Source: a virus (taxonomy: Duplodnaviria; Caudoviricetes). Taken from it: a stretch of DNA of 52,492 nucleotides. The notes under the pieces were generated by a model. It had not been told where the DNA came from and did no database searches. It worked only from the letters and a program-made list of their open reading frames with translations. The position numbers and the translations under genes were made by a program. This document shows, piece by piece, positions 18,336-52,492 of this stretch. The DNA lies in IMG/VR virus record IMGVR_UViG_3300042922_000373, positions 1 to 52,492 of that record; one strand, 5' to 3'. Every line of letters starts with the position of its first letter. The first letter of the stretch is position 1.

Positions 18336-18362
18336 TCATTATAGGCCCTGTATTTCTCGCGA
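18336..18362 (-). promoter_or_regulatory. 27-bp conserved promoter-like motif
   Basis: TCGCGAGAAATACAGGGCCTATAATGA. Confidence 0.8.
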
Positions 18363-18680
18363 GTCCTCGATGGCCGCGATTTGCTGGTTGTGCCGTGCGA
18401 TCTCCTCGGGACTACGATTTGCAAGCATGCGGTCGTATTCCTCGAGTTCTTCCGGGGTCTTGAGGCGGACCCTGGACATGTGATGGGCGGAATATGAGTT
18501 GGTCGCCTCGTCGAATTGGTGAATCACGTCACCCTTTTCGTACACGGCGAAACGAAGCCAATCCGCAAGGGATAGCCCCGTCTTTTCCCACTCTTCTCGA
18601 AGGAATGCCTCTTCCTTATTCACCAACTCTTGCTGGAACTCTCGCTGCTCTCTGAGAAGCTGCTCGACGTCGTAGGCCAA
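18339..18680 (-). CDS. hypothetical protein
   Basis: AAGGAG RBS, TTG start; its stop codon lies inside the promoter motif. Confidence 0.65.
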   Translation of the reverse strand: MAYDVEQLLREQREFQQELVNKEEAFLREEWEKTGLSLADWLRFAVYEKGDVIHQFDEATNSYSAHHMSRVRLKTPEELEEYDRMLANRSPEEIARHNQQIAAIEDSREIQGL

Positions 18681-18897
18681 TCTCAGTCTCCTTATACAGC
18701 ATGAACATGGACGTGACGAACTCGGATGAGTTGCCTTTGGCTTGGGTGAGGGCTCCCAGAGTCGCAGTGACGAAGACCGTCAGCTGTTCGTCCGAGAGCC
18801 CCTCGACCTCAATGCCGTGCTTCTTGAGTACCCGAGTCAGATCCCCCTCGAAAGTGGAATCATCGCCCTCCCAGGTATCGAATAACGCATCAGCCAC
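18616..18897 (-). CDS. hypothetical protein
   Basis: GTG start overlapping the end of the upstream small ORF. Confidence 0.55.
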   Translation of the reverse strand: MADALFDTWEGDDSTFEGDLTRVLKKHGIEVEGLSDEQLTVFVTATLGALTQAKGNSSEFVTSMFMLYKETEIGLRRRAASQRAARVPARVGE

Positions 18898-19030
18898 CTG
18901 GTGCACATTCAGCGTGGTAGACGTTCCCGGCGTGTAGCGCGACGTTATTGCCTCGGATTTCTCTCTGGCAGGTCTTGTCGTCGCACTCCATGTACTTCTC
19001 GCCGGAATCGCGGTCGTAGGTGACGCCCAT
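18890..19030 (-). CDS. small Cys/His zinc-finger-like protein (46 aa, not in the ORF track)
   Basis: MGVTYDRDSGEKYMECDDKTCQREI...YHAECAPGG; TGATG coupling. Confidence 0.55.
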   Translation of the reverse strand: MGVTYDRDSGEKYMECDDKTCQREIRGNNVALHAGNVYHAECAPGG

Positions 19031-19167
19031 CAGCGCTTTCCACCGCGCTTGGCCTTGCGCCGCTTAGCCACGGCCTTCTTGTGTCGAACCTCCTGTCGGG
19101 CCGCGAGATCCTTCTCACGACGCTCTCGTACTGCACGGAGGTATGACCACCCCGGAACTGGGATCAT
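19030..19167 (-). CDS. small basic protein (45 aa, not in the ORF track)
   Basis: AAGGA RBS; MIPVPGWSYLRAVRERREKDLAARQEVRHKKAVAKRRKAKRGGKR. Confidence 0.55.
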   Translation of the reverse strand: MIPVPGWSYLRAVRERREKDLAARQEVRHKKAVAKRRKAKRGGKR

Positions 19168-19454
19168 GTGTTCTTGTCCTTCTCGAATGGATAGCACGCA
19201 TAAGGATATCCGTGGTACACGAACACGGCGTCCTTATAGCGTTTGGGGATGAGTTGCTCGTAAGGTTCGATCTCCAACCCACATGCCGAGCAATATATGG
19301 GTATCAGCGCGATCGGGTAATCAGCGAAAGGAGTAGTAATCCTGTTTCGGAGGCTTCTGAAACGTAACCCCCATGACAGGACTCGCATCCCTCGCTGACG
19401 TGTAGAAGTAGGACACGTCGAGCTTGTGGTCGAGGTTCCAACCGAAGTCGTCAC
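19164..19454 (-). CDS. small CxxC...HGxPxxC protein (true start unclear, probably near 19320)
   Basis: CSAC...YHGYPYAC resembles ORF 14914..15117. Confidence 0.45.
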   Translation of the reverse strand: MTTSVGTSTTSSTCPTSTRQRGMRVLSWGLRFRSLRNRITTPFADYPIALIPIYCSACGLEIEPYEQLIPKRYKDAVFVYHGYPYACYPFEKDKNT

Positions 19455-20118
19455 CCATCGGCACGTTCCCCAGCCCGATCATGTCGTAGAACATGTTCAG
19501 GGAGGCGTAGTTGTTGTTGTTGATCTCGGCGTTGATCGCGTTGACGGCGGCGTCGACGATGTTCTGGTTGCCCCAGAAATATCGGTCTGTCCAGACATCG
19601 AGGCACTCGACCATCTTCTCGTCGAGACGCCGGGAGTCCGAGAGGAGATTGCGGTCATCCATCGGGTCGCGGTTTGCAACACGATCGCGGATGATCTCCT
19701 CTTCGATCTTGGCGTACTTCGAGTCACCCTGAAGCTCCCGAGTCTTGTCCCGCCACTCCGTCAAAGCCCTGTCGGAGAGGGTGTAAAGGCTCAGTAGAGC
19801 CGCCTTCTGCTTTGTGTTGATCGATTGTGCAGAGATGACACAGCCGATAGTGACCAAGCCGGCAGACAGGGGTGGTACGAAATGCAGCCAAGTCAGCTGG
19901 ACCTTCTCTTTGGCGGTGAGCGGAGTGCCCGGGTCGTTCGGATCGTTGACGTACCGCCGCTCCTCCTCGGCAAGGATGTCGTCATGGGCTCGGATTGCTG
20001 CCCTGGCCGACAGGATCCCGGTGAAGACCACCCCAGCCACCCCAGCGGCCGTGAGGATAGCCGACGAATTCTGAACGATCTTCTGGCTCAGAGTGGACGT
20101 GATGCTAGCGAATGTCAT
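19321..20118 (-). CDS. DUF6353-like protein (paralog of 13960..14910)
   Basis: NSSAILTAAGVAGVVFTGILSARA...ASLNMFYDMIGL...GDDFGWN. Confidence 0.7.
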   Translation of the reverse strand: MTFASITSTLSQKIVQNSSAILTAAGVAGVVFTGILSARAAIRAHDDILAEEERRYVNDPNDPGTPLTAKEKVQLTWLHFVPPLSAGLVTIGCVISAQSINTKQKAALLSLYTLSDRALTEWRDKTRELQGDSKYAKIEEEIIRDRVANRDPMDDRNLLSDSRRLDEKMVECLDVWTDRYFWGNQNIVDAAVNAINAEINNNNYASLNMFYDMIGLGNVPMGDDFGWNLDHKLDVSYFYTSARDASPVMGVTFQKPPKQDYYSFR

Positions 20119-20305
20119 CTTCTTCTTCCTTGTACTTGCGGAGGTATGCGTTGGTCAGGAGGATCAGGAAGAGGATAACGAACATCGCCCCCACAATAAT
20201 CCACCCGAAGGTATTGACGTTGACGTTGGCCTCAAGCCATCCGGCACCGAAAATAAGAACCCCGAGGACCACGAAGGTTCCGAGCCACCAGACGAGTGTC
20301 TTCAC
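20105..20305 (-). CDS. small membrane protein (2 TM)
   Basis: AAGGAGAGG RBS; two hydrophobic helices. Confidence 0.7.
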   Translation of the reverse strand: MKTLVWWLGTFVVLGVLIFGAGWLEANVNVNTFGWIIVGAMFVILFLILLTNAYLRKYKEEEDDIR

Positions 20306-20577
20306 GACAGCCTCTCCTTCAAGATGTTGTTCGTGTCGACAAACGTCGAGCCGGATACGTTGAGGGACTTGAGGGTGATCTCTTTCCCCGTGTCTTTCTG
20401 CACCAGCTTATGGTAGAAGAGCACATAACCCTCGTTCTCGACCAAGTGGCGAACCGCCGCCTTCTTGGTGACGAGTTCCGGACCGGAGAGATCCGTGAAG
20501 TCAAGGACGACGTGATCATCGTTGTCCTTGACCAGCGTGCGGAGCTCTTCGATGGCGACCTCGAACTTCGTAGCCAT
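20302..20577 (-). CDS. hypothetical protein
   Basis: ATG coupled (TGATG) to the upstream small ORF; MATKFEVAIEEL... Confidence 0.6.
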   Translation of the reverse strand: MATKFEVAIEELRTLVKDNDDHVVLDFTDLSGPELVTKKAAVRHLVENEGYVLFYHKLVQKDTGKEITLKSLNVSGSTFVDTNNILKERLS

Positions 20578-20708
20578 CAGTACGCCCACGCCATCGTCAT
20601 CTGGTAGCGATAGTTCCGGCGCTCCGAGAAAAGCGGGGAACCCTGCTTGGGCGGGAATCCGAAGTAGTAGGCAGCCTTCTTTGCTGCTCGGATCATCTTG
20701 TTCTTCAT
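20577..20708 (-). CDS. small hypothetical protein (43 aa, not in the ORF track)
   Basis: TCTTGAAAGGAG RBS; MKNKMIRAAKKAAYYFGFPPKQ... Confidence 0.6.
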   Translation of the reverse strand: MKNKMIRAAKKAAYYFGFPPKQGSPLFSERRNYRYQMTMAWAY

Positions 20709-20726
20709 GATGTTCTCCTTTCAAGA

Positions 20727-20827
20727 AAACAAAATTAGAAGGGCAAGTAGCGGTGCTACGTTGCGTCCAGTGGGGCTGCCACTCCGCGAGATGCGGGATG
20801 GACATCTATCTCTAGATCTCTTCTAAT
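20727..20827 (-). ncRNA. candidate multi-hairpin small RNA
   Basis: Outer stem ATTAGAAG/CTTCTAAT encloses ATCTA-GAGA-TAGAT, CCGC/GCGG, AGTGG/CCACT, GTCCA/TGGAC and GTAGC/GCTAC; ends in TTTTGTTTT. Confidence 0.55.
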
Positions 20828-20849
20828 ATAGGGTATGTAAAACTCGCGA
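20823..20849 (-). promoter_or_regulatory. 27-bp conserved promoter-like motif
   Basis: TCGCGAGTTTTACATACCCTATATTAG. Confidence 0.7.
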
Positions 20850-20851
20850 GG

Positions 20852-21169
20852 TCAGCTTCCGTACCGCTCAAGGCTGTATACCTGGACCGCCGCGACAAGA
20901 GCCTTGGCCATGGGATCACCGTCAGCTGCTTGGTTGACGATGTTGGTCCAGCGAATGCTTACGTGTCGGCGATCTGCCGCGAGACTCTCGATCCGGTCCT
21001 CGAGTGTGAAGGCCTCGACGTCGCGGTCGCTGGCCTGCACCCCACGAATATAGGCCGAACGAATGCCTTGCTCGATCATCGTGTCGACCGTACTGTCGTT
21101 CTTCGGGTAGTCACTGTAGGCCTTACGAACGACCTTGACCAGGTTCTCGACTATCTTCTTGTTGAGCAT
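20852..21169 (-). CDS. hypothetical protein
   Basis: AAAGGAG RBS. Confidence 0.7.
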   Translation of the reverse strand: MLNKKIVENLVKVVRKAYSDYPKNDSTVDTMIEQGIRSAYIRGVQASDRDVEAFTLEDRIESLAADRRHVSIRWTNIVNQAADGDPMAKALVAAVQVYSLERYGS

Positions 21170-21318
21170 CAGTTCTCCTTTATTCGGTCTCGCCAGTAGC
21201 GAATTGCGGTGTATACCTTCGAGGGGCTGTAGCCTGTCTTGATGGCTATCTGTCCACCAGTCAAGCCTCGCCTCTTAAGCTCGAAGATATTGAGTACATA
21301 GGCTGGAGGTGTCTCCAA
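21169..21318 (-). CDS. small HTH protein (49 aa, not in the ORF track)
   Basis: TTG start; IFELKRRGLTGGQIAIKTGYSPSKVYTAI; TGATG coupling. Confidence 0.5.
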   Translation of the reverse strand: METPPAYVLNIFELKRRGLTGGQIAIKTGYSPSKVYTAIRYWRDRIKEN

Positions 21319-21331
21319 TGGGCCTGTTTGC

Positions 21332-21523
21332 TTATTGGGCACTTGCGTTGGCGGTCCTTCTCGAGTCGTGTCCTTGCGGGAACGGGATGTTGCGGCGCCA
21401 GATAGCGGCTTCGTCGTAGAAGCCAGACACGGGTCGACCGATCACTGCGATGTCCCGGGGCTTGCGTCCACGACGACACGGCTGGTCGCCAACAGCACCA
21501 CAGGTGGGGCATGGCACTTTCAT
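21332..21523 (-). CDS. small zinc-finger protein
   Basis: TTGAAAGGAG RBS; VPCPTCGAVGDQPC...H. Confidence 0.65.
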   Translation of the reverse strand: MKVPCPTCGAVGDQPCRRGRKPRDIAVIGRPVSGFYDEAAIWRRNIPFPQGHDSRRTANASAQ

Positions 21524-21535
21524 GAGTCTCCTTTC

Positions 21536-21563
21536 AAAAATGGAAACCCGTGTTAGGGGTTCC
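21536..21563 (-). terminator. intrinsic terminator with CTAACAC loop
   Basis: GGAACCC-CTAACAC-GGGTTTCCATTTTT. Confidence 0.7.
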
Positions 21564-21577
21564 CACTTGACTAGTTG

Positions 21578-21691
21578 TTACTTGCGTCGCATTTCGCGTA
21601 CGAAGATTCCGATGAGCCAGAGTCCACTGGTGAGTGCCGTGAGAAGACAGTCTCCAATGAAACTCCAGAATCCATACTTTCCTCCGAACAT
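21578..21691 (-). CDS. micro membrane protein (37 aa, not in the ORF track)
   Basis: GAAAGGAA RBS; MFGGKYGFWSFIGDCLLTALTSGLWLIGIFVREMRRK. Confidence 0.7.
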   Translation of the reverse strand: MFGGKYGFWSFIGDCLLTALTSGLWLIGIFVREMRRK

Positions 21692-21717
21692 GAATGTTCC
21701 TTTCGTAAGTGGGGTGG

Positions 21718-21744
21718 TCATTATACCCCCTGTGAAAGTCGCGA
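21718..21744 (-). promoter_or_regulatory. 27-bp conserved promoter-like motif
   Basis: TCGCGACTTTCACAGGGGGTATAATGA. Confidence 0.8.
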
Positions 21745-21745
21745 C

Positions 21746-21777
21746 AAAATAAGAACCCGTGTTAGGGGTTCCTATTT
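21746..21777 (-). terminator. intrinsic terminator, exact 32-bp repeat of 22090..22121
   Basis: AAATAGGAACCC-CTAACAC-GGGTTCTTATTTT. Confidence 0.75.
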
Positions 21778-21784
21778 GAGTTGG

Positions 21785-22012
21785 TCACTCGTTGGGGTTG
21801 ATGAGCTTGTCAGCAGCGACTTCTCCAGCCACATTGGCGACGACGGCGAACACGATGACGGTGGGGATCGCGATGGCCAGCGTGATGAAGGTGGTCCGAA
21901 TCATTTCGGATACACGATCGAGCACGGGCTTCGCGGCCTCCTCCAAATCGGGGAGTTCGACGTTGACGTTGACGGTGTGGTTGAGGTCGATCGGCTTCTT
22001 GAACAGAGGCAT
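21785..22012 (-). CDS. small single-TM membrane protein
   Basis: TAAAGGAG RBS; TFITLAIAIPTVIVFAVVANV. Confidence 0.7.
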   Translation of the reverse strand: MPLFKKPIDLNHTVNVNVELPDLEEAAKPVLDRVSEMIRTTFITLAIAIPTVIVFAVVANVAGEVAADKLINPNE

Positions 22013-22040
22013 GATTTCTCCTTTAGTAGGGTGGTTGATC

Positions 22041-22067
22041 TCATTAAAGCCCATGTAAACTGCGCGA
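22041..22067 (-). promoter_or_regulatory. 27-bp conserved promoter-like motif
   Basis: TCGCGCAGTTTACATGGGCTTTAATGA. Confidence 0.75.
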
Positions 22068-22089
22068 CACCAAAACGATAGCCCATGCG

Positions 22090-22121
22090 AAAATAAGAAC
22101 CCGTGTTAGGGGTTCCTATTT
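22090..22121 (-). terminator. intrinsic terminator, exact 32-bp repeat of 21746..21777
   Basis: same sequence as 21746..21777. Confidence 0.75.
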
Positions 22122-22127
22122 TTGATG

Positions 22128-22391
22128 TCACTCGGTGGGGGTGGTTTCCTTGATGACGATCGTGTTGGCTTCCTTGGCTGCCTTGCGGTTCGCGCGGTGG
22201 GTCTTCACCTTGTCGGTGACTGCGCCCGCAACGACGATCAGGCCCATCGTTCCGAGTCCCACTGCGAGTGGGGCCAGGGTGGCGATGACGGCACTGACGA
22301 TCTGCTGCGGGACAGTCGCGGGTTCGGTGTAGTAGACGGTGATGTTCGCGTCGCACTCGGCGGCTTCGTTGCTGTCCATGAGTTCGTTCAT
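22128..22391 (-). CDS. small membrane protein
   Basis: AAGGAG RBS; hydrophobic central segment. Confidence 0.7.
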   Translation of the reverse strand: MNELMDSNEAAECDANITVYYTEPATVPQQIVSAVIATLAPLAVGLGTMGLIVVAGAVTDKVKTHRANRKAAKEANTIVIKETTPTE

Positions 22392-22418
22392 TTTAGTGTT
22401 CTCCTTAATAGAGGGTGG

Positions 22419-22445
22419 TCATTATACCCCCTGTAAAACTCGCGA
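22419..22445 (-). promoter_or_regulatory. 27-bp conserved promoter-like motif
   Basis: TCGCGAGTTTTACAGGGGGTATAATGA. Confidence 0.8.
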
Positions 22446-22455
22446 ATACATGGCC

Positions 22456-22480
22456 AAAAGATAAGCCTCCGTAGAGGCTC
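22456..22480 (-). terminator. intrinsic terminator with UACG tetraloop
   Basis: GAGCCTC-TACG-GAGGCTT ATCTTTT. Confidence 0.65.
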
Positions 22481-22486
22481 ACCTTG

Positions 22487-22639
22487 TTACTCCTGGGGAG
22501 CCTTGTCGTTCAGTTCTGCCTTGAGCGCCTCCCGCTCGGTCTTGATGGCGTCGCGCTTGGCTGCAACGTGGTTGCGGAGCTTCTGCGCGCCGTCCTTCAG
22601 GGACTTGCGGGCGACGAGGTCGAGGGCGAAAACAGACAT
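22487..22639 (-). CDS. small helical protein (50 aa, not in the ORF track)
   Basis: GAAAGGAA RBS; MSVFALDLVARKSLKDGAQKLRNHVAAKRDAIKTEREALKAELNDKAPQE. Confidence 0.7.
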   Translation of the reverse strand: MSVFALDLVARKSLKDGAQKLRNHVAAKRDAIKTEREALKAELNDKAPQE

Positions 22640-22660
22640 GGTTTTTCCTTTCGTAGGTGG

Positions 22661-22687
22661 TCATTATACCCCCTGTAAATCCTGCGA
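22661..22687 (-). promoter_or_regulatory. 27-bp conserved promoter-like motif
   Basis: TCGCAGGATTTACAGGGGGTATAATGA. Confidence 0.8.
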
Positions 22688-22709
22688 AAACGAAAGGCTC
22701 CGTAGAGCC
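22687..22709 (-). terminator. intrinsic terminator with UACG tetraloop
   Basis: GGCTC-TACG-GAGCC TTTCGTTTT. Confidence 0.65.
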
Positions 22710-22721
22710 GATCGCTTGCCT

Positions 22722-22823
22722 TTACTTCACGATGGCAGAGATGATGGTGTAAGCGTTCCAGATCCAGAGCGATGCTGCGAGTGCAGTACCGGTCCAGAAG
22801 ATGTAACGTTCGGTGATGTTCAT
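22722..22823 (-). CDS. micro membrane protein (33 aa, not in the ORF track)
   Basis: TAAAGGAG RBS; MNITERYIFWTGTALAASLWIWNAYTIISAIVK. Confidence 0.7.
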   Translation of the reverse strand: MNITERYIFWTGTALAASLWIWNAYTIISAIVK

Positions 22824-22846
22824 TTCGTTCTCCTTTAGTAGGGTGG

Positions 22847-22873
22847 TCATTATACCCCGTGTGATTTCTGCGA
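22847..22873 (-). promoter_or_regulatory. 27-bp conserved promoter-like motif
   Basis: TCGCAGAAATCACACGGGGTATAATGA. Confidence 0.8.
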
Positions 22874-22968
22874 AAAAAATAGGGGTTGTGAAACCAGCTT
22901 GATGGATGGTCCATCATGCCGATACCATTCCTGCTTGCGCGGTTCTGGTACCGGTTTCTTCGGTTTCA
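22873..22968 (-). ncRNA. candidate three-way-junction small RNA
   Basis: TGAAACC/GGTTTCA outer stem, CCGGTACCA/TGGTATCGG and TGATGG/CCATCA inner stems; ends in T7; no RBS-led ORF. Confidence 0.5.
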
Positions 22969-22992
22969 TTATAGGGCCCGTAGAATCTGCGA
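22966..22992 (-). promoter_or_regulatory. 27-bp conserved promoter-like motif
   Basis: TCGCAGATTCTACGGGCCCTATAATGA. Confidence 0.75.
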
Positions 22993-23001
22993 TTGGTTTT
23001 T

Positions 23002-23029
23002 GGAGAAATACCCCCCGGGCAATTTTTGG
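23002..23029. repeat. second copy of the cos-proximal AAAAATT-NN-CCGGGGGG motif
   Basis: CCAAAAATTGCCCGGGGGGTATTTCTCC (minus strand), compared with 47691..47720. Confidence 0.65.
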
Positions 23030-23089
23030 AAAAACAAAACACAAGCACGAACCGCGTGTAAGAGTTGGTGTTCTCCTACACGCGGTTCG
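23030..23089 (-). terminator. intrinsic terminator
   Basis: CGAACCGCGTGTA/TACACGCGGTTCG stem followed by a T-rich tract. Confidence 0.7.
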
Positions 23090-23113
23090 CGTTGAGTTGT
23101 CGTGAGTGGTTGG

Positions 23114-23413
23114 TTACTTCAGCAGTTTCCCGCCGAACAACGTCACAGCTTTCGACGTGAAGATCGCAGGGCCTTTGATCTCCAGGATGCCCATGGTCAG
23201 GATGCCGGCTACGTTTCCGATCGCGGGGATCCAGGCTTTGATGCCGGTGCGTTCCTTAGCATTGATTGCTTCGATTTCGCACAGCTTCTTGTACTGGTCC
23301 AGGCGAGCGTCGTATTCGGCGTCACTGGGGTCGAGGGCATGGAGAACTTCCAGCAGGTCGTTCTTCACATCTTGGTGTGTCGTGTGCTCGGTGGGCTTAA
23401 CAAGCTTCAGCAT
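23114..23413 (-). CDS. hypothetical protein
   Basis: TCTTGAAAGGAG RBS; hydrophobic C-terminus. Confidence 0.7.
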   Translation of the reverse strand: MLKLVKPTEHTTHQDVKNDLLEVLHALDPSDAEYDARLDQYKKLCEIEAINAKERTGIKAWIPAIGNVAGILTMGILEIKGPAIFTSKAVTLFGGKLLK

Positions 23414-23436
23414 ACGTTCTCCTTTCAAGAGTTATC

Positions 23437-23463
23437 TCATTATACCGTATGTGAAACCCGCGA
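23437..23463 (-). promoter_or_regulatory. 27-bp conserved promoter-like motif
   Basis: TCGCGGGTTTCACATACGGTATAATGA. Confidence 0.8.
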
Positions 23464-39895: not shown

Positions 39896-39912
39896 TTTGA
39901 AGCTCTCCTTCC

Positions 39913-40485
39913 TCATTTAACTTGGGAGCGAATCTTTTCATACTCGCTCTGGCTTTCGGTCTCGAACTTCTCGTCGATCTTCTGTCGAGTCTCAACGGAT
40001 TTGGTTCGAGTGTTCTTCAGGTCGCCACGTAGTTCCTCGGCAACCTTCCGCATCGCCGTTCTCACGGTATCGATAGCGAAGGCTACTTGCTTACGGCGCT
40101 GTGCTTCGAGAAGTGCGCGTCGACGAGGTGTGGCATTGGGCGGAATAGGAATTGCTTCCTGGAGTTCCGCTAGTCGGTTCCGGAGTTTCTCCTCGAGCTT
40201 GGCTTGAGCTTCTGCCGCTTTCGCACGGAGGTTCTCCAGAGTCTTGTCCGTGGTGGACTTCTCAGACTCCAGTTCCTTCTTGCGGGCTTCGCTCATGTTG
40301 CCCCGAGTGACCTGCCAGACCTCCTTCTGCTCGTCAGACATGTCCGACGTCGGTTGCTTCCCCTTGAGCTCACGTGTCCGGAGATAGTACTGGCGACGCT
40401 TTTCAGGGTCGTAGTACTGGGATGCGTAGTGCGCTAGGAATTCACCGAAGTGTTCCAGAAGGTCTTCGTCATTCGGCTGGGGCAT
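39913..40485 (-). CDS. putative head/internal protein with FLAHY tag
   Basis: between portal and capsid; LLEHFGEFLAHYASQYYDP.K..YY.RTRELKG; coiled coil. Confidence 0.7.
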   Translation of the reverse strand: MPQPNDEDLLEHFGEFLAHYASQYYDPEKRRQYYLRTRELKGKQPTSDMSDEQKEVWQVTRGNMSEARKKELESEKSTTDKTLENLRAKAAEAQAKLEEKLRNRLAELQEAIPIPPNATPRRRALLEAQRRKQVAFAIDTVRTAMRKVAEELRGDLKNTRTKSVETRQKIDEKFETESQSEYEKIRSQVK

Positions 40486-41827
40486 CGCTCTCACCCGTCC
40501 CAACTTCGGCCAGGATCTTGTCGAAGCTGGACTCCATGTTGGTGAGGAATTCGTCTACGACACCTTCTGCGGCACTCGCGTCAACGGGCGCAGCAGGAGC
40601 CGACGGATCAGCACCAGGTACCGGAGCAGGAATGTTCGAGTTGAGCAGCTTGTCGGCCTTCGGATCGCTCGACGGAGCCCAGCCAATGATGGCACGCATC
40701 TCATTGCGAGTTGCGATCTCATTGCGCGTGAGCTTGTCTGCGAGTTCAGGGAACGAACTGAGCGGCACGTACTTGAACGGGTCCCGGAAGAACTTGATCG
40801 ACTGTCCCTGAGAACGAGCCGTCTTTGTGAGGAACGACCGAATCATGGCTTCGACGACGGCAACCAGGATAGGCGCGATGGTGCGGTTGTGGTAGTTGAG
40901 CATCTGCTGCTCGTCTGCCGTACCATCGAAGACCGCCTGCGTGAGACCCAGCTGCGCGAAGAGCATGTTGGTCAGATACTCGATCTGCGCCATCATGTTG
41001 TTCTCTGCGGGCCGGTTCAGCTGTGTGATCTTCTCCTCGATACCGATGTAGCCGATACCGTACTTGGAGTCCTTCATCTGATTCTCGAGAGTCCGACGGC
41101 GGTCCTCGGCGTAGTCCTTACGCGTTTGTGACTTGACCGTATACGGCATCTGGATGATCAGATCGAGTTTGCCCGAACTAGACTGCTCGTCGATCGCGTC
41201 GAGAATGTTCAGCTTGTGAACGAGTCTCTGAAGCGTGGAGTTGCGACTGTTCATGATCGGATAGAGTGGGTTCTCCACAATACCGACAGCCTTCTTGTCG
41301 AACCAGAGTTCGTCGCGAAGTTGCTTTTCATGGTTCCAGACATTGACCTTCACGTGTTCCGACTTCCACTCCACGATTCGTCCAACACGCATGGTGCGGA
41401 CATCGAAGCCGGAGAATTCGGGATCGGTGGTTGTGTCAATCGGGCAGATCGCAATCACGCCTTCATCACACAGGGTCAGAGCGATGTCCTGACGGAACTG
41501 AGTCGCAGCTTGGTCGATGTTCGCTTCTACGGTCAGGCAGTCGTTGAGCAGACTCTTCCTCGTCGAGAGGAAATTGTCATTGCCGTCCACCATCACGTGT
41601 CGGATGGGCGTTGCTGCCACATCGATCGCGATTCGGGTGTAGATCGACGCAATCATCGACTTATCGGTTCCGTAGCTCAGCCGAGTTCGGTCGGGACGGG
41701 CACTGCCACTACCAGCACTGATCGACGGACCAGTGGGCTGATAGCTATCTCGTGTCGTCTCGTCCTTGGCGCGGAAAGCGTTCCACGCATGTGCTATTGA
41801 TTCACCTGCGCGGTCCAAAAAACCCAT
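40469..41827 (-). CDS. portal protein
   Basis: HAWNAF...IYTRIAIDVA...EANIDQ...ENPLY.IMN..NSTLQRL...KLDLIIQ...LTRNEI; follows terminase. Confidence 0.9.
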   Translation of the reverse strand: MGFLDRAGESIAHAWNAFRAKDETTRDSYQPTGPSISAGSGSARPDRTRLSYGTDKSMIASIYTRIAIDVAATPIRHVMVDGNDNFLSTRKSLLNDCLTVEANIDQAATQFRQDIALTLCDEGVIAICPIDTTTDPEFSGFDVRTMRVGRIVEWKSEHVKVNVWNHEKQLRDELWFDKKAVGIVENPLYPIMNSRNSTLQRLVHKLNILDAIDEQSSSGKLDLIIQMPYTVKSQTRKDYAEDRRRTLENQMKDSKYGIGYIGIEEKITQLNRPAENNMMAQIEYLTNMLFAQLGLTQAVFDGTADEQQMLNYHNRTIAPILVAVVEAMIRSFLTKTARSQGQSIKFFRDPFKYVPLSSFPELADKLTRNEIATRNEMRAIIGWAPSSDPKADKLLNSNIPAPVPGADPSAPAAPVDASAAEGVVDEFLTNMESSFDKILAEVGTGESDAPAE

Positions 41828-43795: not shown

Positions 43796-44440
43796 TTAGG
43801 ACTTCTTCTCCTCAGACTTCTCAGCTGTCGCCTTCTTGGCATTGGCAGCGATGTCTTTGGCATTCGGAACGCCGGCCTTCTGCAGAACTGCTCCGATCGC
43901 GACACCAGTGTACTCGGTGACGTAGGCCTGAGCATTCTTCTTGAGGGCTTCGACGAGAATCTTCTTGGTCTCCGACTTGAACGTGGGCGTCTTCGGGGAA
44001 ACCAAGTTGGTGTACCTCTGCTCGAGCTCGAGACGCTTGATCACCGCGTTGAGTTCGTCGTTGGTCATCTCCTTGGCCGATGGCGGCTTCGGTTTGACGG
44101 GCTTCGGCTCCCGAGCGGGCTTGGGTCCTGCCCCACCCTTCGGTGCCGCGTCACCATCGGACTGACCGGGGTGATTCCCGGCGGTCTTGGCCTTGTCGAC
44201 GGAGACGGAGCCATCGCTGTTGCGGCGACGACCCCATTTCATCCCCATCACACCGTAGTGCGCGAGGAATTTGTCGGCGTCCTCGTAGAACTGGTCGCTC
44301 GGCTCGTCCGGAACGTTGAGTCCCATGTGGGCCAGGAACTCCTCGGCCGTCATGCTGTGCACGATGGTTTCCTGGATGTCCTGGATCGGGCGATCGACAA
44401 CGCCGAACTGGGCGAGGTCTGCGAAACTGATTGCGGTCAT
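43796..44440 (-). CDS. HYG-motif putative internal virion protein
   Basis: GGGAGGAGG RBS; FLAHMG and FLAHYGVMGMKWGRRR; MTNDEL...IKRLELEQRY. Confidence 0.75.
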   Translation of the reverse strand: MTAISFADLAQFGVVDRPIQDIQETIVHSMTAEEFLAHMGLNVPDEPSDQFYEDADKFLAHYGVMGMKWGRRRNSDGSVSVDKAKTAGNHPGQSDGDAAPKGGAGPKPAREPKPVKPKPPSAKEMTNDELNAVIKRLELEQRYTNLVSPKTPTFKSETKKILVEALKKNAQAYVTEYTGVAIGAVLQKAGVPNAKDIAANAKKATAEKSEEKKS

Positions 44441-44510
44441 ACTACCTCCTCCCATTATGAGATTGGTGTTACTTACTGAGTCTGTAGTGGCTAAAGTGGC
44501 AGAAGTGACT

Positions 44511-44891
44511 TTAACCAAGAGTGGGCGTAGAAGCTGCGGGCTGCCTGCTGTGGTCGCTAGCTTCCATCAGTCGCCAGGCGTCTTCCTTCAGCTTCTCTTG
44601 AGCAGCTGTGAGCCCGAACGAGTTGGAAGGAGGATCAAACTCCAGCTTCACGTAGCGTGCCACGTATGACTTAACGAGAAGAATGTTCTCGATCGAGCCG
44701 ATGAAGTCTGACCACTTCGGCTCTTTGTCTTCGATGCTGAACGCTGGCGTCGGCCCTACACCATACTGATGCAGCGTAGAGAAAGCCGAGTTGATCGCCA
44801 TGACGATGTCCTCATCAAAGGACGGGTCTTCCGGTCCGATACCACGGACTTTCTTGATCGAGTCAAGAATGCTCGCGTCGTTTACTGGCAT
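44511..44891 (-). CDS. head-to-tail adaptor-like protein
   Basis: SILDSIKK..G....FDEDI..AINSAFS.L.Q.GVGP...VK.YV...VKL.FDPP. Confidence 0.6.
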   Translation of the reverse strand: MPVNDASILDSIKKVRGIGPEDPSFDEDIVMAINSAFSTLHQYGVGPTPAFSIEDKEPKWSDFIGSIENILLVKSYVARYVKLEFDPPSNSFGLTAAQEKLKEDAWRLMEASDHSRQPAASTPTLG

Positions 44892-47773: not shown

Positions 47774-48037
47774 TTATGCAGACCCCAAGAGGCCTTGCAC
47801 AGTGGTTTCGTCGACCTTCAAGTAGATGCCGGCTTCATCGAATTCCAGAATTTCATCAATTCCTTGTTCGATCGCTTGCATCTGATCAGCTTCAGACAAT
47901 TCATCAGAAGACTTGACCACTCGTGCCAGGTAGGCAGTGGTGTGGTAGCCCTTGCTCTCGTCGTACTGAAACCATTCATCGAACCTTGTGAAAGGATCGT
48001 AAGGATTGTCCGCTGTGGTGAGCATGTGCCCTGCCAT
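47774..48037 (-). CDS. hypothetical protein
   Basis: MLTT.DNPYDPF..FDEW..YD...GY.T..YLAR; directly after the RNAP-like gene. Confidence 0.7.
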   Translation of the reverse strand: MAGHMLTTADNPYDPFTRFDEWFQYDESKGYHTTAYLARVVKSSDELSEADQMQAIEQGIDEILEFDEAGIYLKVDETTVQGLLGSA

Positions 48038-48064: not shown

Positions 48065-50890
48065 TTAGCCGTTGACATAGTCGTGGAGGGTACTGGTAGG
48101 TACGCCCAGCATGGCTGCCACATCAGCGTAGTCATAGCCCCTAGCTAGGAGGGACTTGGCTCGCGTTACCTTGGCGGGGGCGATGGCCTTGACCTCGCGT
48201 GGTGTGGCCAGCTGCTTGACCTGATCCAGGTCGGCGTTGTCCAAGATGCTCTTCAGCATGTTGTTAGTAACAGCGCCTGCCTGTACAGCACTCCATTCCT
48301 TATCAGTGATCTGAATGGCCGGCTTCTTGGCTCCCATGCGGGCACGGGCTTCATTCAGGGCGGCGGACTTAATCTTCTTGATGCCGTCCTTATCCAGATC
48401 CGGGTTTGCTTCGATCCTGGCCTTAACCAGGGTACCTGCTAGAATCTGGGCCTGCCGTTCACGAGGGGCGTTTCTCTGCGCGAGATCCAGCTTCTCAGCG
48501 AGACTCTTAACTTCAGGCGCATAGGCCTTGGCTGCAGAGGGGTTCCTCTTGATGGAGGGGGTCTCAATTGTCGACTTGCGAGCAGAGTCCCCTAGTGCCT
48601 TGAGCTTGTTGGCGTGATCTGCATAGACGTGCTCCATGAGAGTACCGCCATCACGAGACAGCAGTTCACGGGCGTCATTGGCTTCGAACATCTTGGTGGA
48701 CTTACCCTGTGACCAAGGCTTGTCTACAACTTCGCCATTCTTCTTGGTGATCTGCTCACCAGTGTACTCCCAGACGCGCTTCCCTGTAGCAGGGTCAATA
48801 CGCATCTTGCGGTCTGCAGGACGGGCCTCAGACTTAGCACGAGAAATGAGAGTTGCGGCACCACGAGTAGCGCCACCCTGATAGGTCTTCTTGAGCTCCG
48901 CAATACCGTTCTGTTTCGCAGACGTACGGAAATCAAGCGAATGCTTTTCAGCATCGATGACAACCATGGAATGACGCACTGCACGAGCGAGCTCCGAATT
49001 CGGCGCACCCTGAATGGTCATGTCTGTGATCAGATTGGAGATGTCACCCATCTTCAGCTGCTTAGCCTGCTTGTTAGGCGACTTGGGCTTGCCGGTTTTG
49101 GGGTCGATCGGGAAAACGGGCTTTCCGAGTTTGGCGTCCCACGTTCCACCGTCGATGGTCTTCATTCCGTCAAAAGGCGGATGTGCCCTCTGAGGATCGA
49201 ATCCCTTGAGCCCTTGCAGAGGAGGTGCAGACTTCACACGACCCTTGCCAGATTCAGGATTCGGAATGACCAGAACCGTGTCACCATCGAAGTCGGCACC
49301 TGAAAGGCGACCGGCAACATTGGCGTTGATTCCAACAGCGTCCTTTGCCTGTTTGATGAGGCGGTTCGCTTCACGGTTACGGTTGTTCACAACGAGTTCG
49401 GGAATCTCGAACGTACCACCATGCGGATGACGAATCAGAACGACTCGCTCACCGTTGTTGTAGTTCGGGGCGTAGATCTCGTTGTCCTTCAGACTGTTAA
49501 TCGGAAGGATGACATGGTTTGCAGTTCTCGGCAGACCAGCGGCCTTCAAGTGGTTTGCAGCGGAATCGATGCCATCAGCGTACGACTCCAGGAGCTTCTT
49601 CTTGATAACCGGGTTTGTCAGGGAGTTGATCTCGTCGAGTTCGGCCTTTTTGCGATCGTACGCAAGCGACAGCTGCTCGCGGGCCAGATCGGGCGACTGC
49701 TTTGACAGGAACTGAGACGAAAGCGACTTGGACCACTTGGACCAGCCACCTTCTTCACCAGAATAGGAGATGTCGTTTCCGTCATCATCCTTCTTCACAG
49801 ATCCGACGATGTTAAGCGGCGACTGATGCTGCTTTCCGTCTTTTCCGGGATAGTTGATCTGGCGAACGATCGATCCGAACGGAAGCTCGGTGTCTTCACC
49901 GGTATTCGCGTCCTTCTTGATCGGCTTCATAGCCTTGAGCTTGTCGCCCGTGTTCGTCTTGTTCGTGTTGAAGATCATGTCATAGCCGTCCGGCACATCG
50001 TCCGAATACATGGCCATGCCCTTGAGGTAGTGATCGTTTCCGACCTTGATACGCACCTGGGCGTACCGTGAGCTACCGAGGGACAGATCGTCGACTCCAC
50101 GACGAAGCTCGATGACACCGTCCTTCTGATCTCCGCCATCTTCCGCATAACGGACAGCCACTCGAGAGGGCTTTACCGCAACGGGAGGCTTGACGTCGAG
50201 ATAGGTACGGCCACCGTCTTCGCTGTAGGTCGCGATCGACTTGATCTTCTCAGGGTGGTTGATGACATCGGGGAACCGCGTTCCAGGAGGGGCGAGCACC
50301 TTGGTGGTGGTGTTCTTTCCCGTTCCCAGCTGGTTGACAGGCACATAGAAGACTTCGTAGCCCTCGTCCTTGAGCATGGCAACCGACACAGCGAGCTTTT
50401 CAGGGCTCACACCGAGGTGGTTACCCGTTCCCTTACCGATGTCGAGGAATCCGCCGGACTTCTCCATGTTGTCCTTCAGAGTTCCCGCGGTTGCCAACAG
50501 AATGGCTTCCTTGGTGTCCTCGGAGGGCTTCAGGAGTGCACGGATGGACGACTCGTTGCGACCCATGATCTCACCGATGGCGACGTTCGAGTTTCCGGCG
50601 TCCTTGAGTCGGACAGCGCGGGCTCGGTCTTCAGCATCGATGCGGGCCTTGGCGATCGTCTTTGCATTGCGGAGATCCGTAGTCGTGAACTTGACCTCGT
50701 CGGTCGAGAAAGCGCGTGCGATCTCAACAGGCGAGAAGCCCTTGTCTTCGAGGTCCTTGATGTGGGCGAGCATGTCCTTACCGCGCTGGTAGGGAGTCTC
50801 ACCCGAACCCCAAGGATAGCGTCCCGACTTGCGGAGGACGCCATAGTGAGCGAGAAACTCATCGTGGTCCACATCACTGTCGAAAATCAC
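48065..50890 (-). CDS. single-chain two-barrel (double-psi beta-barrel) RNA polymerase, YonO/QDE-1-like, with N- and C-terminal HTH
   Basis: QVRI...YLKGM; VLIRHPH; LSGADFDGD catalytic motif; MGDISN; SMVVIDAEKH; HTHs SNVAIGEIMGRNESSIRALL and YADVAAMLGVPTSTL. Confidence 0.8.
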   Translation of the reverse strand: MIFDSDVDHDEFLAHYGVLRKSGRYPWGSGETPYQRGKDMLAHIKDLEDKGFSPVEIARAFSTDEVKFTTTDLRNAKTIAKARIDAEDRARAVRLKDAGNSNVAIGEIMGRNESSIRALLKPSEDTKEAILLATAGTLKDNMEKSGGFLDIGKGTGNHLGVSPEKLAVSVAMLKDEGYEVFYVPVNQLGTGKNTTTKVLAPPGTRFPDVINHPEKIKSIATYSEDGGRTYLDVKPPVAVKPSRVAVRYAEDGGDQKDGVIELRRGVDDLSLGSSRYAQVRIKVGNDHYLKGMAMYSDDVPDGYDMIFNTNKTNTGDKLKAMKPIKKDANTGEDTELPFGSIVRQINYPGKDGKQHQSPLNIVGSVKKDDDGNDISYSGEEGGWSKWSKSLSSQFLSKQSPDLAREQLSLAYDRKKAELDEINSLTNPVIKKKLLESYADGIDSAANHLKAAGLPRTANHVILPINSLKDNEIYAPNYNNGERVVLIRHPHGGTFEIPELVVNNRNREANRLIKQAKDAVGINANVAGRLSGADFDGDTVLVIPNPESGKGRVKSAPPLQGLKGFDPQRAHPPFDGMKTIDGGTWDAKLGKPVFPIDPKTGKPKSPNKQAKQLKMGDISNLITDMTIQGAPNSELARAVRHSMVVIDAEKHSLDFRTSAKQNGIAELKKTYQGGATRGAATLISRAKSEARPADRKMRIDPATGKRVWEYTGEQITKKNGEVVDKPWSQGKSTKMFEANDARELLSRDGGTLMEHVYADHANKLKALGDSARKSTIETPSIKRNPSAAKAYAPEVKSLAEKLDLAQRNAPRERQAQILAGTLVKARIEANPDLDKDGIKKIKSAALNEARARMGAKKPAIQITDKEWSAVQAGAVTNNMLKSILDNADLDQVKQLATPREVKAIAPAKVTRAKSLLARGYDYADVAAMLGVPTSTLHDYVNG

Positions 50891-51480
50891 AGGGCATCCT
50901 CCAATCGGACCTGGTCGTAGATGGCGTCGGCGTTGATGGTCTTTTCCATGATCTCTTCGATCCGCCGGGGGTCAGGAATGAATTCCTTGTACGGTTCGTC
51001 GTTCTGGTAGATGCGCAGAACGATCAACATGTCGTACGGACTCTTCTTGTACTCGAGGCAGAAGTACGCAGCGTAAACTTCAAGCTGCGTGAATGCCGTA
51101 CGAGTGGTCCCGGTCTTCAAGTCGTGAATGCGAAGCACCCACAGCTTTTCACCGGTCTCCTGGATGACCTCTTCACGGTAACCGATGCAATCGGCCGTTC
51201 CAAAGGCATTGTAGGTGACGAAGAGGACGACTTCGGGACTCATGCGGAATCCAATGCCGTCGTTGACGTAACAGTTGAAGGACGAACGGTTCTTCGGTCG
51301 CTTCATACCCAGGACGATGTCCCGAGCAGCGAGGTCGTGCAGGTCAGTCCCACGCTGAGCCTGGAGGTTGTTGCGCATGGAAAGACGGAGCTTGTTGTTG
51401 TCATAGCCCAGCCAGTGGTGCTTCGACGCACTAAGCGGCGCGTGCCTTCCTTGCACTTCTGAATGTCTGTTGAATTGCAT
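50887..51480 (-). CDS. PD-(D/E)XK exonuclease (Cas4/DUF2800-like)
   Basis: HAPLSAS; RGTDLH; E..L....AFGTAD; IHDLKTG; QLEVYA. Confidence 0.75.
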   Translation of the reverse strand: MQFNRHSEVQGRHAPLSASKHHWLGYDNNKLRLSMRNNLQAQRGTDLHDLAARDIVLGMKRPKNRSSFNCYVNDGIGFRMSPEVVLFVTYNAFGTADCIGYREEVIQETGEKLWVLRIHDLKTGTTRTAFTQLEVYAAYFCLEYKKSPYDMLIVLRIYQNDEPYKEFIPDPRRIEEIMEKTINADAIYDQVRLEDAL

Positions 51481-51769
51481 CTAGAATCGCTTCCTTGTTC
51501 TCGGGGTAAATGAAAGCGCCAAACGACATGTCATCACACTTGTCGATGTAGTAGTCCTGGTTCGGTTGGTGGTCCGAGTTCCAGGCTGCTTTGACTTCCA
51601 GCATTACCCATTTGTTCTTGTACAACACGATGAGATCTGGGATCCCCGTCCGAAGCTGCGCATCGTTCTTCAAAATGATGCACTCTGGATAGAGGGCCTC
51701 AAGTTCCTTGATGAGCTCAGCTTGGAATGCGGATTCCAGCTTTTGCTCACGTTTGGTAACATTGGGCAT
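51431..51769 (-). CDS. VRR-NUC domain nuclease (Holliday junction resolvase-like)
   Basis: LESAFQ..L...GIPDLIVL....W.MLEVK.......PNQ. Confidence 0.8.
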   Translation of the reverse strand: MPNVTKREQKLESAFQAELIKELEALYPECIILKNDAQLRTGIPDLIVLYKNKWVMLEVKAAWNSDHQPNQDYYIDKCDDMSFGAFIYPENKEAILDAIQQTFRSARKARAA

Positions 51770-51827: not shown

Positions 51828-51854
51828 TCATTATAACCCATGTATCGAATGCGT
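51828..51854 (-). promoter_or_regulatory. 27-bp conserved promoter-like motif upstream of the nuclease-nuclease-RNAP operon
   Basis: ACGCATTCGATACATGGGTTATAATGA. Confidence 0.7.
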
Positions 51855-51893: not shown

Positions 51894-51933
51894 AAAAAGT
51901 GAAAGCCCGTGTGGTTAGCACGAGCACTCACTT
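51894..51933 (-). terminator. intrinsic terminator with CTAACCA loop
   Basis: AAGTGA..GCTCGTG-CTAACCA-CACGGGC..TCACTTTTT. Confidence 0.7.
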
Positions 51934-51938
51934 ATCAG

Positions 51939-52094
51939 CTACAGCTGGCGGTGTACTGTGGGCCAGTAGTGCGGGATCGAGTTGATGAGGATCTGACGGA
52001 CGTGCTCCTCGGCACTCTCCGGGGTGTGGAAAGCTCCGGGAACGGCGTCCAGGTCAACCTCAACAACGAGAGTCACGCGCTGTCCATTAGGCAT
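51939..52094 (-). CDS. small hypothetical protein (51 aa, not in the ORF track)
   Basis: GAAAGGAAG RBS after the motif at 52116; MPNGQRVTLVVEVDLDAVPGAFHTPES... Confidence 0.7.
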   Translation of the reverse strand: MPNGQRVTLVVEVDLDAVPGAFHTPESAEEHVRQILINSIPHYWPTVHRQL

Positions 52095-52115
52095 GGTACT
52101 TCCTTTCGTAGGTGG

Positions 52116-52142
52116 TCATTATAGGCCTTGTAGACCCCGCGA
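52116..52142 (-). promoter_or_regulatory. 27-bp conserved promoter-like motif
   Basis: TCGCGGGGTCTACAAGGCCTATAATGA. Confidence 0.8.
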
Positions 52143-52149
52143 ACGGCTC

Positions 52150-52492
52150 GTGGCCAAATGTGGCGGTTTTTGGACAAGTAGTTTGTTTTGTAGAGAGATT
52201 AGTTTAGCTCTTAAATTTACCTACAAACTTGGCCACTTGGCCACGGGGGATCCTCAACTTCGGCAAATGTCCACACATACCCCCGTTTTGGGGCGTTTTG
52301 AGCCTACTTTAGTCACATTAGTCACACTTTTAACAGTTTTCACACACGCTCCCGTGGCCAAGTACGTACCCAAAGGTGGCCATTTGCCCACTTATTTGGG
52401 TTTTTTGTGGGCGTTACTGTCATAAAAGTGCAGTTTTTATGGCAGAAAGTGCCCACAATTTTTCGGACAACTTGGCCACTTGGCCACATGTG
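52150..52492. repeat. AT-rich region with TGGCCA/GTGGC/GCCCAC repeats (candidate replication origin)
   Basis: AACTTGGCCACTTGGCCAC twice (~52226 and ~52469), further GTGGCCA copies, T-tracts, TTAGTCACA tandem; no credible ORF. Confidence 0.55.

Follow-up and report, generated by a model that had tools for sequence, protein, structure and literature searches.

Among the relatives of the polymerase that transcribes every cellular genome, those with two barrels in a single chain are the simplest, and only a handful have been studied so far: QDE-1 and the RDRs, YonO, phi14:2 gp66, and gp64 and gp96 of P23-45. YonO, encoded by the Bacillus prophage SPbeta, is a single-chain DNA-dependent RNA polymerase (RNAP) that transcribes the SPbeta late operon, and its promoter and any initiation factor are unknown (PMC5467207). 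The RNAP gp64 of P23-45 is a monomer, is not a virion component and has a promoter motif of its own (PMC10770324). Here we analyse a gene for a polymerase-like protein with helix-turn-helix (HTH) modules at both ends, found at positions 48,065 to 50,890 of IMG/VR virus record IMGVR_UViG_3300042922_000373. This 52,492-base record, referred to in full as the window, derives from an uncultured soil phage and is classed as linear and 87% complete. A near-complete copy of its sequence is present in soil metagenome runs, and the listed holders of the stretch include no RNA dataset.

The family to which the protein belongs has been noticed before. In the passages cited here, Koert et al. (bioRxiv 10.1101/842583) report it from phages of Lactococcus and Faecalibacterium as well as from a ‘supercluster’ of actinophages, with an HHpred match to PF05183, HTHs at both ends, and DxDGD and crAss/YonO-type motifs, and conclude that it ‘could potentially have RNA polymerase activity’. 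Among the five families that Ruprich-Robert and Thuriaux (PMC2919709) class as YonO-like, one is represented by a putative relative of the present protein, that of Lactococcus phage 1706, and YonO itself belongs to a separate one, distantly related to it. Where a Streptomyces phage protein bears the label ‘RNA-dependent RNA polymerase’, a 2026 paper (PMC13587820) still regards this, in the passage concerned, as an oddity belonging to RNA viruses. The two-barrel polymerase idea is already published, and the window is in itself an ordinary result, one further member of an uncharacterised family predicted in print. What is added here is the position of the gene at the right genome end beside a cos junction, and two copies of a strand-specific motif, YACA-N5-TATAATGA, that recurs in relatives including a Lactococcus phage. 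We consider it probable that the protein is a single-chain two-barrel polymerase of the QDE-1, YonO and P23-45 gp64 kind, acting as the phage’s own DNA-dependent transcriptase, with the HTHs placing the enzyme on DNA.

Active-site motifs and domain layout

In a rough gene call, essentially all genes of the window lie on the minus strand. The gene and the parts of its product are as follows.

48065..50890, minus strand: gene for the polymerase-like protein (P0001), a single open reading frame (ORF) with a GTG start, 941 amino acids (aa), stop included; a member of phrog_4291
50786..50866, minus strand: conserved N-terminal peptide EFLAHYG..R.SGRYPWGSG, residues 9-35, modelled with low confidence; a candidate interaction or targeting tag
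50456..50785, minus strand: N-terminal helical region with HTH units, residues 36-145 (HTH_23, phrog_664; helices at 35-145 in the model)
50186..50449, minus strand: small alpha/beta domain (helix-helix-hairpin), residues 148-235, from predicted secondary structure
48545..50185, minus strand: predicted two-barrel catalytic core, residues 236-782, comprising two barrels, a connector and two long helices
49280..49294, minus strand: predicted magnesium-binding loop D533-F-D535-G-D537 in the second barrel, with D533, D535, G536 and D537 invariant in 107/107 sequences
48068..48544, minus strand: C-terminal helical region ending in HTH units, residues 783-941 (helices at 784-940 in the model)

A sequence-only reading of this DNA had named five polymerase-like motif strings. 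All five are present in the order claimed, and the coordinates it gave correspond to exactly one ORF. From the N- to the C-terminus they are QVRIKVGNDHYLKGM (residues 278-292), IRHPH (486-490), LSGADFDGD (529-537), MGDISN (614-619) and SMVVIDAEKH (641-650). Conservation was assessed in an alignment of 107 family members with 44-77% identity to the query, where Q278, R280, K290, G291, R487, P489, H490, D533, D535, G536 and D537 are invariant, as are M614, G615, N619, D646, K649 and H650. Because the motif residues are invariant across this alignment, the motif set is, judged by conservation, not a product of chance.

The motifs fall along the core in a consistent layout. A beta-like barrel carries Q278, R280 and K290-G291, and is followed by a connector, a beta-prime-like barrel with R487-x-P489, and helices with G615..N619 and D646..K649. 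R487, P489, D533, D535 and D537, all conserved in 107/107 sequences, are five of the eight superfamily-invariant residues that PMC2919709 counts in the part used here. Candidates for the counterparts of Rpb2 K979, K987 and D837, two lysines and one aspartate of the beta-like barrel, come from the first barrel, where K290 and K322 show no variation in the alignment and conservation of D257, D304 and K311 is 90% or higher. The small domain ahead of the core is modelled as strand 148-150, helices 155-159 and 163-175, and strands 179-186 and 193-200, and looks winged-helix-like in the prediction.

Predicted fold and relation to known polymerases

An AlphaFold2 model built on the 107-member alignment has a mean predicted local distance difference test score (pLDDT) of 87.7 and a predicted template modelling score of 0.79, with low-confidence stretches at residues 15-29 (pLDDT below 50), 222-235 and 367-372. 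We see two strand clusters, at 244-362 and 457-543. The DFDGD loop lies between a helix at 523-528 and a strand at 538-543, before the last strand of the second cluster, and two long helices (607-626 and 631-650) bear the G..N and D..K motifs. The sequence-only reading had been staked on two double-psi barrels around DFDGD; structure prediction and a Foldseek search were run, and in the predicted model two such barrels are present and form one active-site cleft. Taken together, the alignment and the model show a beta-like and a beta-prime-like double-psi barrel that are predicted to hold the DFDGD magnesium loop, R-x-P and K-G at one active site. The structural part of that reading, a single-chain two-barrel polymerase, is thus supported by both motifs and predicted fold.

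When the model was compared with the PDB using Foldseek, the top match was QDE-1 (7y7r_A, E-value (E) 2.0e-9, probability 1.00), followed by gp62 of P74-26 (8f5m_A, 2.8e-7), maize RDR2 (7w82, 2.2e-6) and gp64 of P23-45 (8f72_B, 4.3e-6), and from about E 1e-3 by the largest subunits of multisubunit RNA polymerases. Matches from a library of viral structures included the P23-45 protein A7XX94 and phage proteins that bear the name RNA-dependent RNA polymerase. At the level of sequence profiles, phrog_8308 matches residues 459-544 (E 3.5e-6, 26.7 bits). This profile represents the YonO family, as it scores 1220 bits at SPBc2 61395-63854, within the annotated yonO gene; its match to the phage protein spans 86 residues and not the full length of the profile.

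Comparison with the individual systems brings out both likeness and difference. YonO is likewise one phage-encoded chain with R-x-P-H and DxDGD in the same order, but it belongs to a different family, with only those 86 matching residues and a null hhalign result. P23-45 gp64 and P74-26 gp62 (PDB 8F72, 8F5M) are non-virion single-subunit two-barrel RNAPs, and gp64 has about 590 aa compared to 941 aa here; in the gp64 paper (PMC10770324) the term ‘helix-turn-helix’ is absent, and sequence similarity is undetectable by HMMER. QDE-1 of Neurospora and plant RDR2 (PDB 2J7N, 7Y7P-T, 7W82) share 11-18% identity with the phage protein, but they are RNA-templated or dual enzymes of eukaryotic RNA interference, with other flanking domains and no terminal HTH modules. 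The crAss-like phi14:2 gp66 (PDB 6VR4), a large virion-packaged protein, is of the same superfamily according to PMC10770324, and was not among the matches listed in either structure search.

Family membership and annotation

The protein matches phrog_4291, ‘RNA-dependent RNA polymerase’, with E = 0 and 1205.7 bits, residues 8-940 aligning to profile positions 7-906 of 909. Using tblastn, 250 GenBank phage records match, 249 of which cover at least 80% of the query. By host name these comprise Arthrobacter (95), Gordonia (55), Streptomyces (54), Lactococcus (13), ‘Siphovirus’ (12), Curtobacterium (7), Microbacterium (4), Rhodococcus (4) and others. Identity is below 60% for all 250 records and ranges from 36.7 to 57.4% among the 40 matches listed, the best being Microbacterium phage Count at 57.4%; the nearest metagenomic relative reaches 76%. 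A word-index search gave at least 8000 candidates at E ≤ 1e-5, and when 50%-identity representatives were searched exhaustively, 2189 proteins had E ≤ 0.001 and 865 of them E ≤ 1e-30. PHROG 4291 is far larger than any of the single-chain two-barrel groups studied so far. Its phage members are homologous to the window copy over the full length, carry the same motifs and HTHs at both ends, and have the gene likewise at the right end of the genome with the same small gene behind it, and they do not differ from it in kind. Among them, Lactococcus phage P078, which we take to be a 1706-like phage, is used below as the comparison from outside the actinophages.

Most members bear a misleading label, that of an HTH protein or of an enzyme that is ‘RNA-dependent’. 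The labels among the 40 GenBank matches listed are HTH DNA-binding protein (25), hypothetical protein (8), RNA-dependent RNA polymerase (5), DNA binding protein (1) and ‘putative transcription factor D5’ (1). The expectation in the sequence-only reading that a domain scan would call the protein an HTH protein and nothing else holds for Pfam, where HTH_23 alone exceeds its cut-off, but fails for PHROGs, where phrog_4291 carries a polymerase name.

Some variety in architecture was also seen. Five relatives of about 1045-1080 aa (P0034, P0057, P0078, P0089 and P0104) have an extra Pfam PF13563 (2'-5' RNA ligase-like) domain. Two others, P0130 (1068 aa) and P0132 (1062 aa), have an N-terminal extension of about 165 aa, and the Pfam scan of P0130 at E ≤ 0.001 lists HTH families alone.

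Helix-turn-helix modules at both ends

HTH_23 matches residues 85-121 (E 7.5e-8, 32.4 bits against a cut-off of 24.6), and phrog_664, ‘DNA binding protein’, covers residues 36-120 (E 3.9e-10). At the C-terminus there are weak matches to HTH_3 (915-941, E 0.076) and Sigma70_r4_2 (918-935, E 0.16), and phrog_3855, ‘HTH DNA binding protein’, matches residues 904-939. In a set of 52 relatives scanned at E ≤ 0.01, HTH_23 was found in 52/52, Sigma70_r4_2 in 44/52 and Sigma70_r4 in 37/52, and many unrelated HTH families match the same stretches. The N- and C-terminal parts of the family profile both match HTH chains in the PDB, the C-terminal one at profile positions 847-889. On these profile matches, the HTH modules at both ends are real. 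A sigma-like action of the modules would be plausible; Pfam scans of the protein and the 52 relatives gave no match to sigma region 2.

Position at the right end of the genome

The polymerase is the fourth gene of a run that comprises a small ORF, a VRR-Nuc-like endonuclease, a Cas4-like exonuclease, the polymerase and a phrog_4303 protein.

52150..52487, no strand assigned: non-coding stretch rich in TGGCCA and GTGGCCAAGT repeats, upstream of the polymerase operon
52094..51939, minus strand: 51-codon ORF, followed by a terminator-like hairpin at 51905-51925
51431..51769, minus strand: gene for a VRR-Nuc-like endonuclease (phrog_93, E 1.9e-14, residues 57-157 of the long ORF)
50887..51480, minus strand: gene for a Cas4/RecB-like exonuclease (phrog_3953, E 9.6e-60), upstream of the polymerase
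47774..48037, minus strand: small gene (87 aa; phrog_4303, E 2e-34) after the polymerase, the last of the physical genome
47694..47770, minus strand: cos junction at about 47720/47721, with the right end ...GGGGGTGGGGAGGGGGTCTCG..CCCCCACCCCGTATCGCCGCCCT joined to the left end CCTAAAAAATTCTCCGGGGGGATATTT

The polymerase gene and the exonuclease gene upstream overlap by 4 nucleotides (nt), the GTG start of the former lying across the stop of the latter. The endonuclease gene probably starts at the ATG at 51769, leaving a longer ORF from 51931 unused. The module of VRR-Nuc, Cas4 exonuclease, polymerase and small protein is kept in phages Count, Pippin15, Circum and Scap1, the gene at the exonuclease position of Scap1 being annotated ‘DNA helicase’. 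In Lactococcus P078, the polymerase and the small gene come after a lysin gene and not after nucleases. The small gene lies 3' of the polymerase in 5/5 relatives examined.

About 50 bases downstream of the small gene lies the cos junction site. The right-end part (up to ...GTATCGCCGCCCT) aligns with the last bases of Count, Circum, Scap1, Pippin15 and Lactococcus P078, and the CCTAAAAAATTCTCCGGGGGGATATTT side aligns with the first bases of Circum and Count. As the right and left ends of the relatives align to the two sides of the junction, the record must have been assembled across cos. This puts the polymerase gene at the very right-hand end of the physical genome, where all relatives have it too. 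Close to the right end, phages of both host phyla retain an inverted repeat made of a G-run and a C-run. A different reading of this site, in which the hairpin after the small gene and AAAAATTnnCCGGGGGGnTATTT would be a terminator followed by a late promoter (‘Motif B’), was considered and rejected, as the two halves match the physical ends of relatives and constitute the cos junction. A second copy of the left-end element (CAAAAATTGCCCGGGGGGTATTT) is found at 23005-23028 on the minus strand, at the boundary of tail and early genes and just upstream of a copy of the promoter-like motif described below.

Packaging of the lambda type starts at the terminase-proximal left end. If packaging here is lambda-like, the right end would enter the host first, and the polymerase would be made early.

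The non-coding stretch upstream of the operon is marked by its repeats. It holds 6 of the 11 GTGGCCAAGT matches, including tandem pairs, and 7 of the window’s 25 TGGCCA sites fall in the last 393 nt, compared to 0.19 expected. Pippin15, Count and Circum have similar repeats in the equivalent region ahead of their polymerase modules. This stretch could be an origin, a regulatory array or the target of the HTH modules.

A promoter-like motif upstream of the polymerase module

Allowing at most one mismatch, the motif YACA-N5-TATAATGA has 10 copies in the window, all on the coding strand, compared to 0.08 expected. Its longer consensus is TCGCR-N4-TYACA-N5-TATAATGACCACC, after which come some 10-20 bases, a ribosome-binding site and an ATG.

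52111..52145 (core 52116-52132), minus strand: full 35-nt copy TCGCG-N4-TACA-N5-TATAATGACCACC before the 51-codon ORF, position weight matrix score 43.1
51828..51844, minus strand: TACATGGGTTATAATGA, an exact YACA-N5-TATAATGA match directly upstream of the VRR-Nuc, exonuclease and polymerase genes
18336..23453, minus strand: eight further copies, at 18336, 21718, 22041, 22419, 22661, 22847, 22966 and 23437

Two copies precede the polymerase module, parted by the 51-codon ORF and the terminator-like hairpin. The other eight stand at the start of the small early genes and of the replication block (18.3-23.5 kb), each shortly before a ribosome-binding site and start codon, and the structural-gene block of the window has no copy. 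Beside these, a hairpin of the form GAACCC..GGGTTC with a T-run occurs in three copies on the minus strand (21537-21568, 21746-21777 and 22090-22121), between small early genes and alternating with the promoter-like motif; these hairpins are probably intrinsic terminators bounding short early transcription units.

The motif is also seen in relatives. A near-identical string, TATAATGAAAGGAGTAGGATA, precedes the VRR-Nuc gene of phage Count, and a copy in Circum immediately precedes the module’s endonuclease gene. Forward and reverse counts are 12/0 in Count, 6/1 in Circum, 2/0 in Scap1 and 9/0 in the low-GC Lactococcus P078, compared to 0-1 for reversed-pattern controls. Pippin15, the closest relative at the DNA level and a carrier of the polymerase gene, has no match. 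Exact copies, always on the strand of the gene, were found in 5 of 29 further loci fetched with the relative P0168, many of them short or duplicate, so that nothing is drawn from this count. The conservation of the motif across hosts of two phyla suggests a phage-encoded reader, as far as sequence comparison can indicate one.

The motif includes a perfect TATAAT, and the -35 position lacks a TTGACA-like sequence, so the conserved upstream part of the motif does not represent a -35 box. Given the perfect TATAAT, the host sigma-A polymerase could read the motif and thereby make the phage enzyme early. If instead the phage enzyme were the sole reader, it would have to enter with the virion, as its own gene lies behind two copies of the motif.

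The N-terminal peptide and the virion

The conserved peptide ahead of the first helix of the polymerase has G17, S22, G23 and G28 invariant, and H15, R24, Y25, S29 and G30 conserved in at least 90% of the 107 sequences. Its (E/D)FLAH(Y/M)(G/A) string recurs in two head-module proteins of the window.

43796-44518, minus strand: head-module protein of 240 aa before the large terminase, with two copies of the string; DUF7211 E 9.6e-14, residues 79-101
39913-40503, minus strand: head-module protein of 196 aa between the portal and protease-capsid genes, with a FLAHYG-like string

The FLAHYG-like string is possibly a common targeting or processing tag, to judge from its recurrence. On the polymerase itself the DUF7211 match is weak (E 0.054, residues 8-18), and this family is outside the 25 most-matched Pfam families of the 52 relatives, the least frequent of which is matched by 6. 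Literature searches found no paper using the term DUF7211 and no virion proteome listing a member of the polymerase family.

Five long forms (1655-2020 aa) were found among the longer proteins: P0168, P0236, P0273, P0274 and P0275. Two are cut mid-domain and joined to another protein, in one case DNA polymerase with polymerase and in the other polymerase with tape measure, and are probably assembly chimeras. Another joins half a portal protein to the polymerase core. The remaining two have an N-terminal extension of about 1050 aa of unassigned function (phrog_8314) and lack the usual N-terminal 60-125 profile positions. P0236 additionally lacks the last HTH, and P0168 and P0236 are each one-member clusters from one contig. 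Of 11 loci holding the closest IMG/VR relatives of the long forms, ORFs were examined in 3, and there the relatives are ordinary stand-alone genes of 891-917 aa. The fused forms were considered as evidence of virion packaging and rejected as such, being singletons and in some cases evident chimeras.

Function of the polymerase

Within the reading that we consider probable, the enzyme would most likely copy phage double-stranded DNA into RNA and would not be RNA-dependent, by analogy with the assayed, DNA-templated phage enzymes YonO, phi14:2 gp66 and P23-45 gp64, and given that HTHs suit double-stranded DNA. The HTH modules at both ends would most likely bind DNA and help to position the enzyme on the phage genome.

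A number of results weigh against this. The Pfam family RdRP (PF05183) reaches residues 524-646 with 12.7 bits against a cut-off of 23.8 (E 0.049), and is found at E ≤ 0.01 in only 23/52 relatives, at best with 1.7e-6. Comparing the family with the single YonO sequence by hhalign gave no match (probability 1%). A phmmer search of PDB sequences with the protein found no polymerase and one irrelevant match, and the family profile searched against the same sequences found HTH chains and designed repeats, as well as P23-45 8h2n_A at E 0.62. Because these PDB sequence searches reach no known polymerase, the link to such enzymes rests on the predicted fold, the hidden Markov model of the PHROG/YonO family and the weak Pfam RdRP matches. 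The nearest solved structures, QDE-1 and RDR2, are of RNA-dependent or dual enzymes, and both RefSeq and PHROGs label the family RNA-dependent. The genes kept beside the polymerase encode nucleases, a setting that would also suit an enzyme of replication or recombination. Nor does a match to sigma region 4 prove a sigma-like function, because small HTHs cross-match many families and no region 2-like element is seen. In the literature, with supplementary files outside the scope of the search, no enzymology, transcriptomics or virion proteomics of family members was found.

These points feed several other explanations. That the protein is a regulator only, with its polymerase-like middle an inactive scaffold, would agree with the commonest GenBank label (25 of the 40 matches listed) and with HTH_23 as the sole Pfam domain above cut-off, but every expected active-site residue is invariant (107/107 sequences at 44-77% identity); because of this invariance an inactive scaffold is very unlikely, and we give the idea scarcely any credence. 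The RefSeq and PHROGs label implies instead an RNA-dependent RNA polymerase, with phage or host RNA as its template and double-stranded or antisense RNA as its product. QDE-1 and plant RDR2 are indeed the best structural matches, RdRP is the sole polymerase family touched by the Pfam search, and QDE-1 has both RNA- and DNA-templated activities, as stated in the passage used of PMC9508822. However, the label comes from homology alone, the assayed phage members of the superfamily use DNA, and HTHs at both ends point to double-stranded DNA, leaving this explanation distinctly improbable. A replication or recombination enzyme would make an RNA primer or R-loop at an origin, with its HTHs on the TGGCCA repeats and the VRR-Nuc and Cas4-like nucleases as partners, and would not serve the phage as its general transcriptase. 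The module conserved in four actinophage relatives fits this, as does the repeat-rich stretch just upstream, which is shared with Pippin15, Count and Circum, and the two-barrel superfamily includes the replicative DNA polymerase PolD (PMC7708050, in the part used here). We nevertheless find such a role improbable, as the phage already encodes a 1288-aa primase-polymerase (phrog_4210, E = 0, with primase matches), the polymerase of Lactococcus P078 is preceded by a lysin gene and not by nucleases, all assayed phage relatives are transcriptases, and the repeats could equally be regulatory or packaging sites near the genome end.

A further possibility keeps the enzyme a transcriptase but makes it self-contained and delivered by the virion: it would be packed by means of its N-terminal peptide, injected, and read YACA-N5-TATAATGA through its own HTHs, with no sigma factor. 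In favour, the specificity of the motif goes far beyond that of a host -10 box, relatives from two phyla have it on their coding strands, no TTGACA-like -35 element accompanies it, and two copies precede the polymerase gene; the N-terminal peptide, moreover, is conserved yet predicted to be disordered, and resembles the FLAHYG strings of two head-module proteins. Against this, the perfect TATAAT means that host sigma-A RNA polymerase may read the motif, Pippin15 has the gene and no motif match, DUF7211 reaches only E 0.054 on the polymerase and is outside the 25 families most matched in relatives, no family member was found in published virion proteomes, and the rare long fused forms are singletons, some of them evident chimeras. 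We hold this proposal to be rather unlikely. A private transcription system, combining sigma-free promoter recognition by HTHs across phyla with virion delivery by the FLAHYG..GRYPWGSG peptide, is unlikely, and if true would be the smallest known self-sufficient transcription machine of the cellular type, common to thousands of phages of Actinobacteria and Firmicutes.

For the single-chain DNA-dependent transcriptase that we favour, built-in DNA-binding modules and a candidate promoter allow direct tests of promoter finding and opening by a minimal two-barrel enzyme, a matter still open for YonO. The family is a good experimental target, as many members infect standard laboratory hosts, and most of the 250 sequenced phages were isolated on hosts of this sort, among them Arthrobacter, Gordonia and Streptomyces.

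Other features of the window

In the structural block, a 723-aa protein (37745-39916, minus strand) matches phrog_3270, ‘head maturation protease’, over residues 232-685, and scans of the window recognised no separate major capsid gene. After the 723-aa protein come two adjacent paralogous major-tail-like genes (phrog_2645), at 36206-37084 and 34810-35619.

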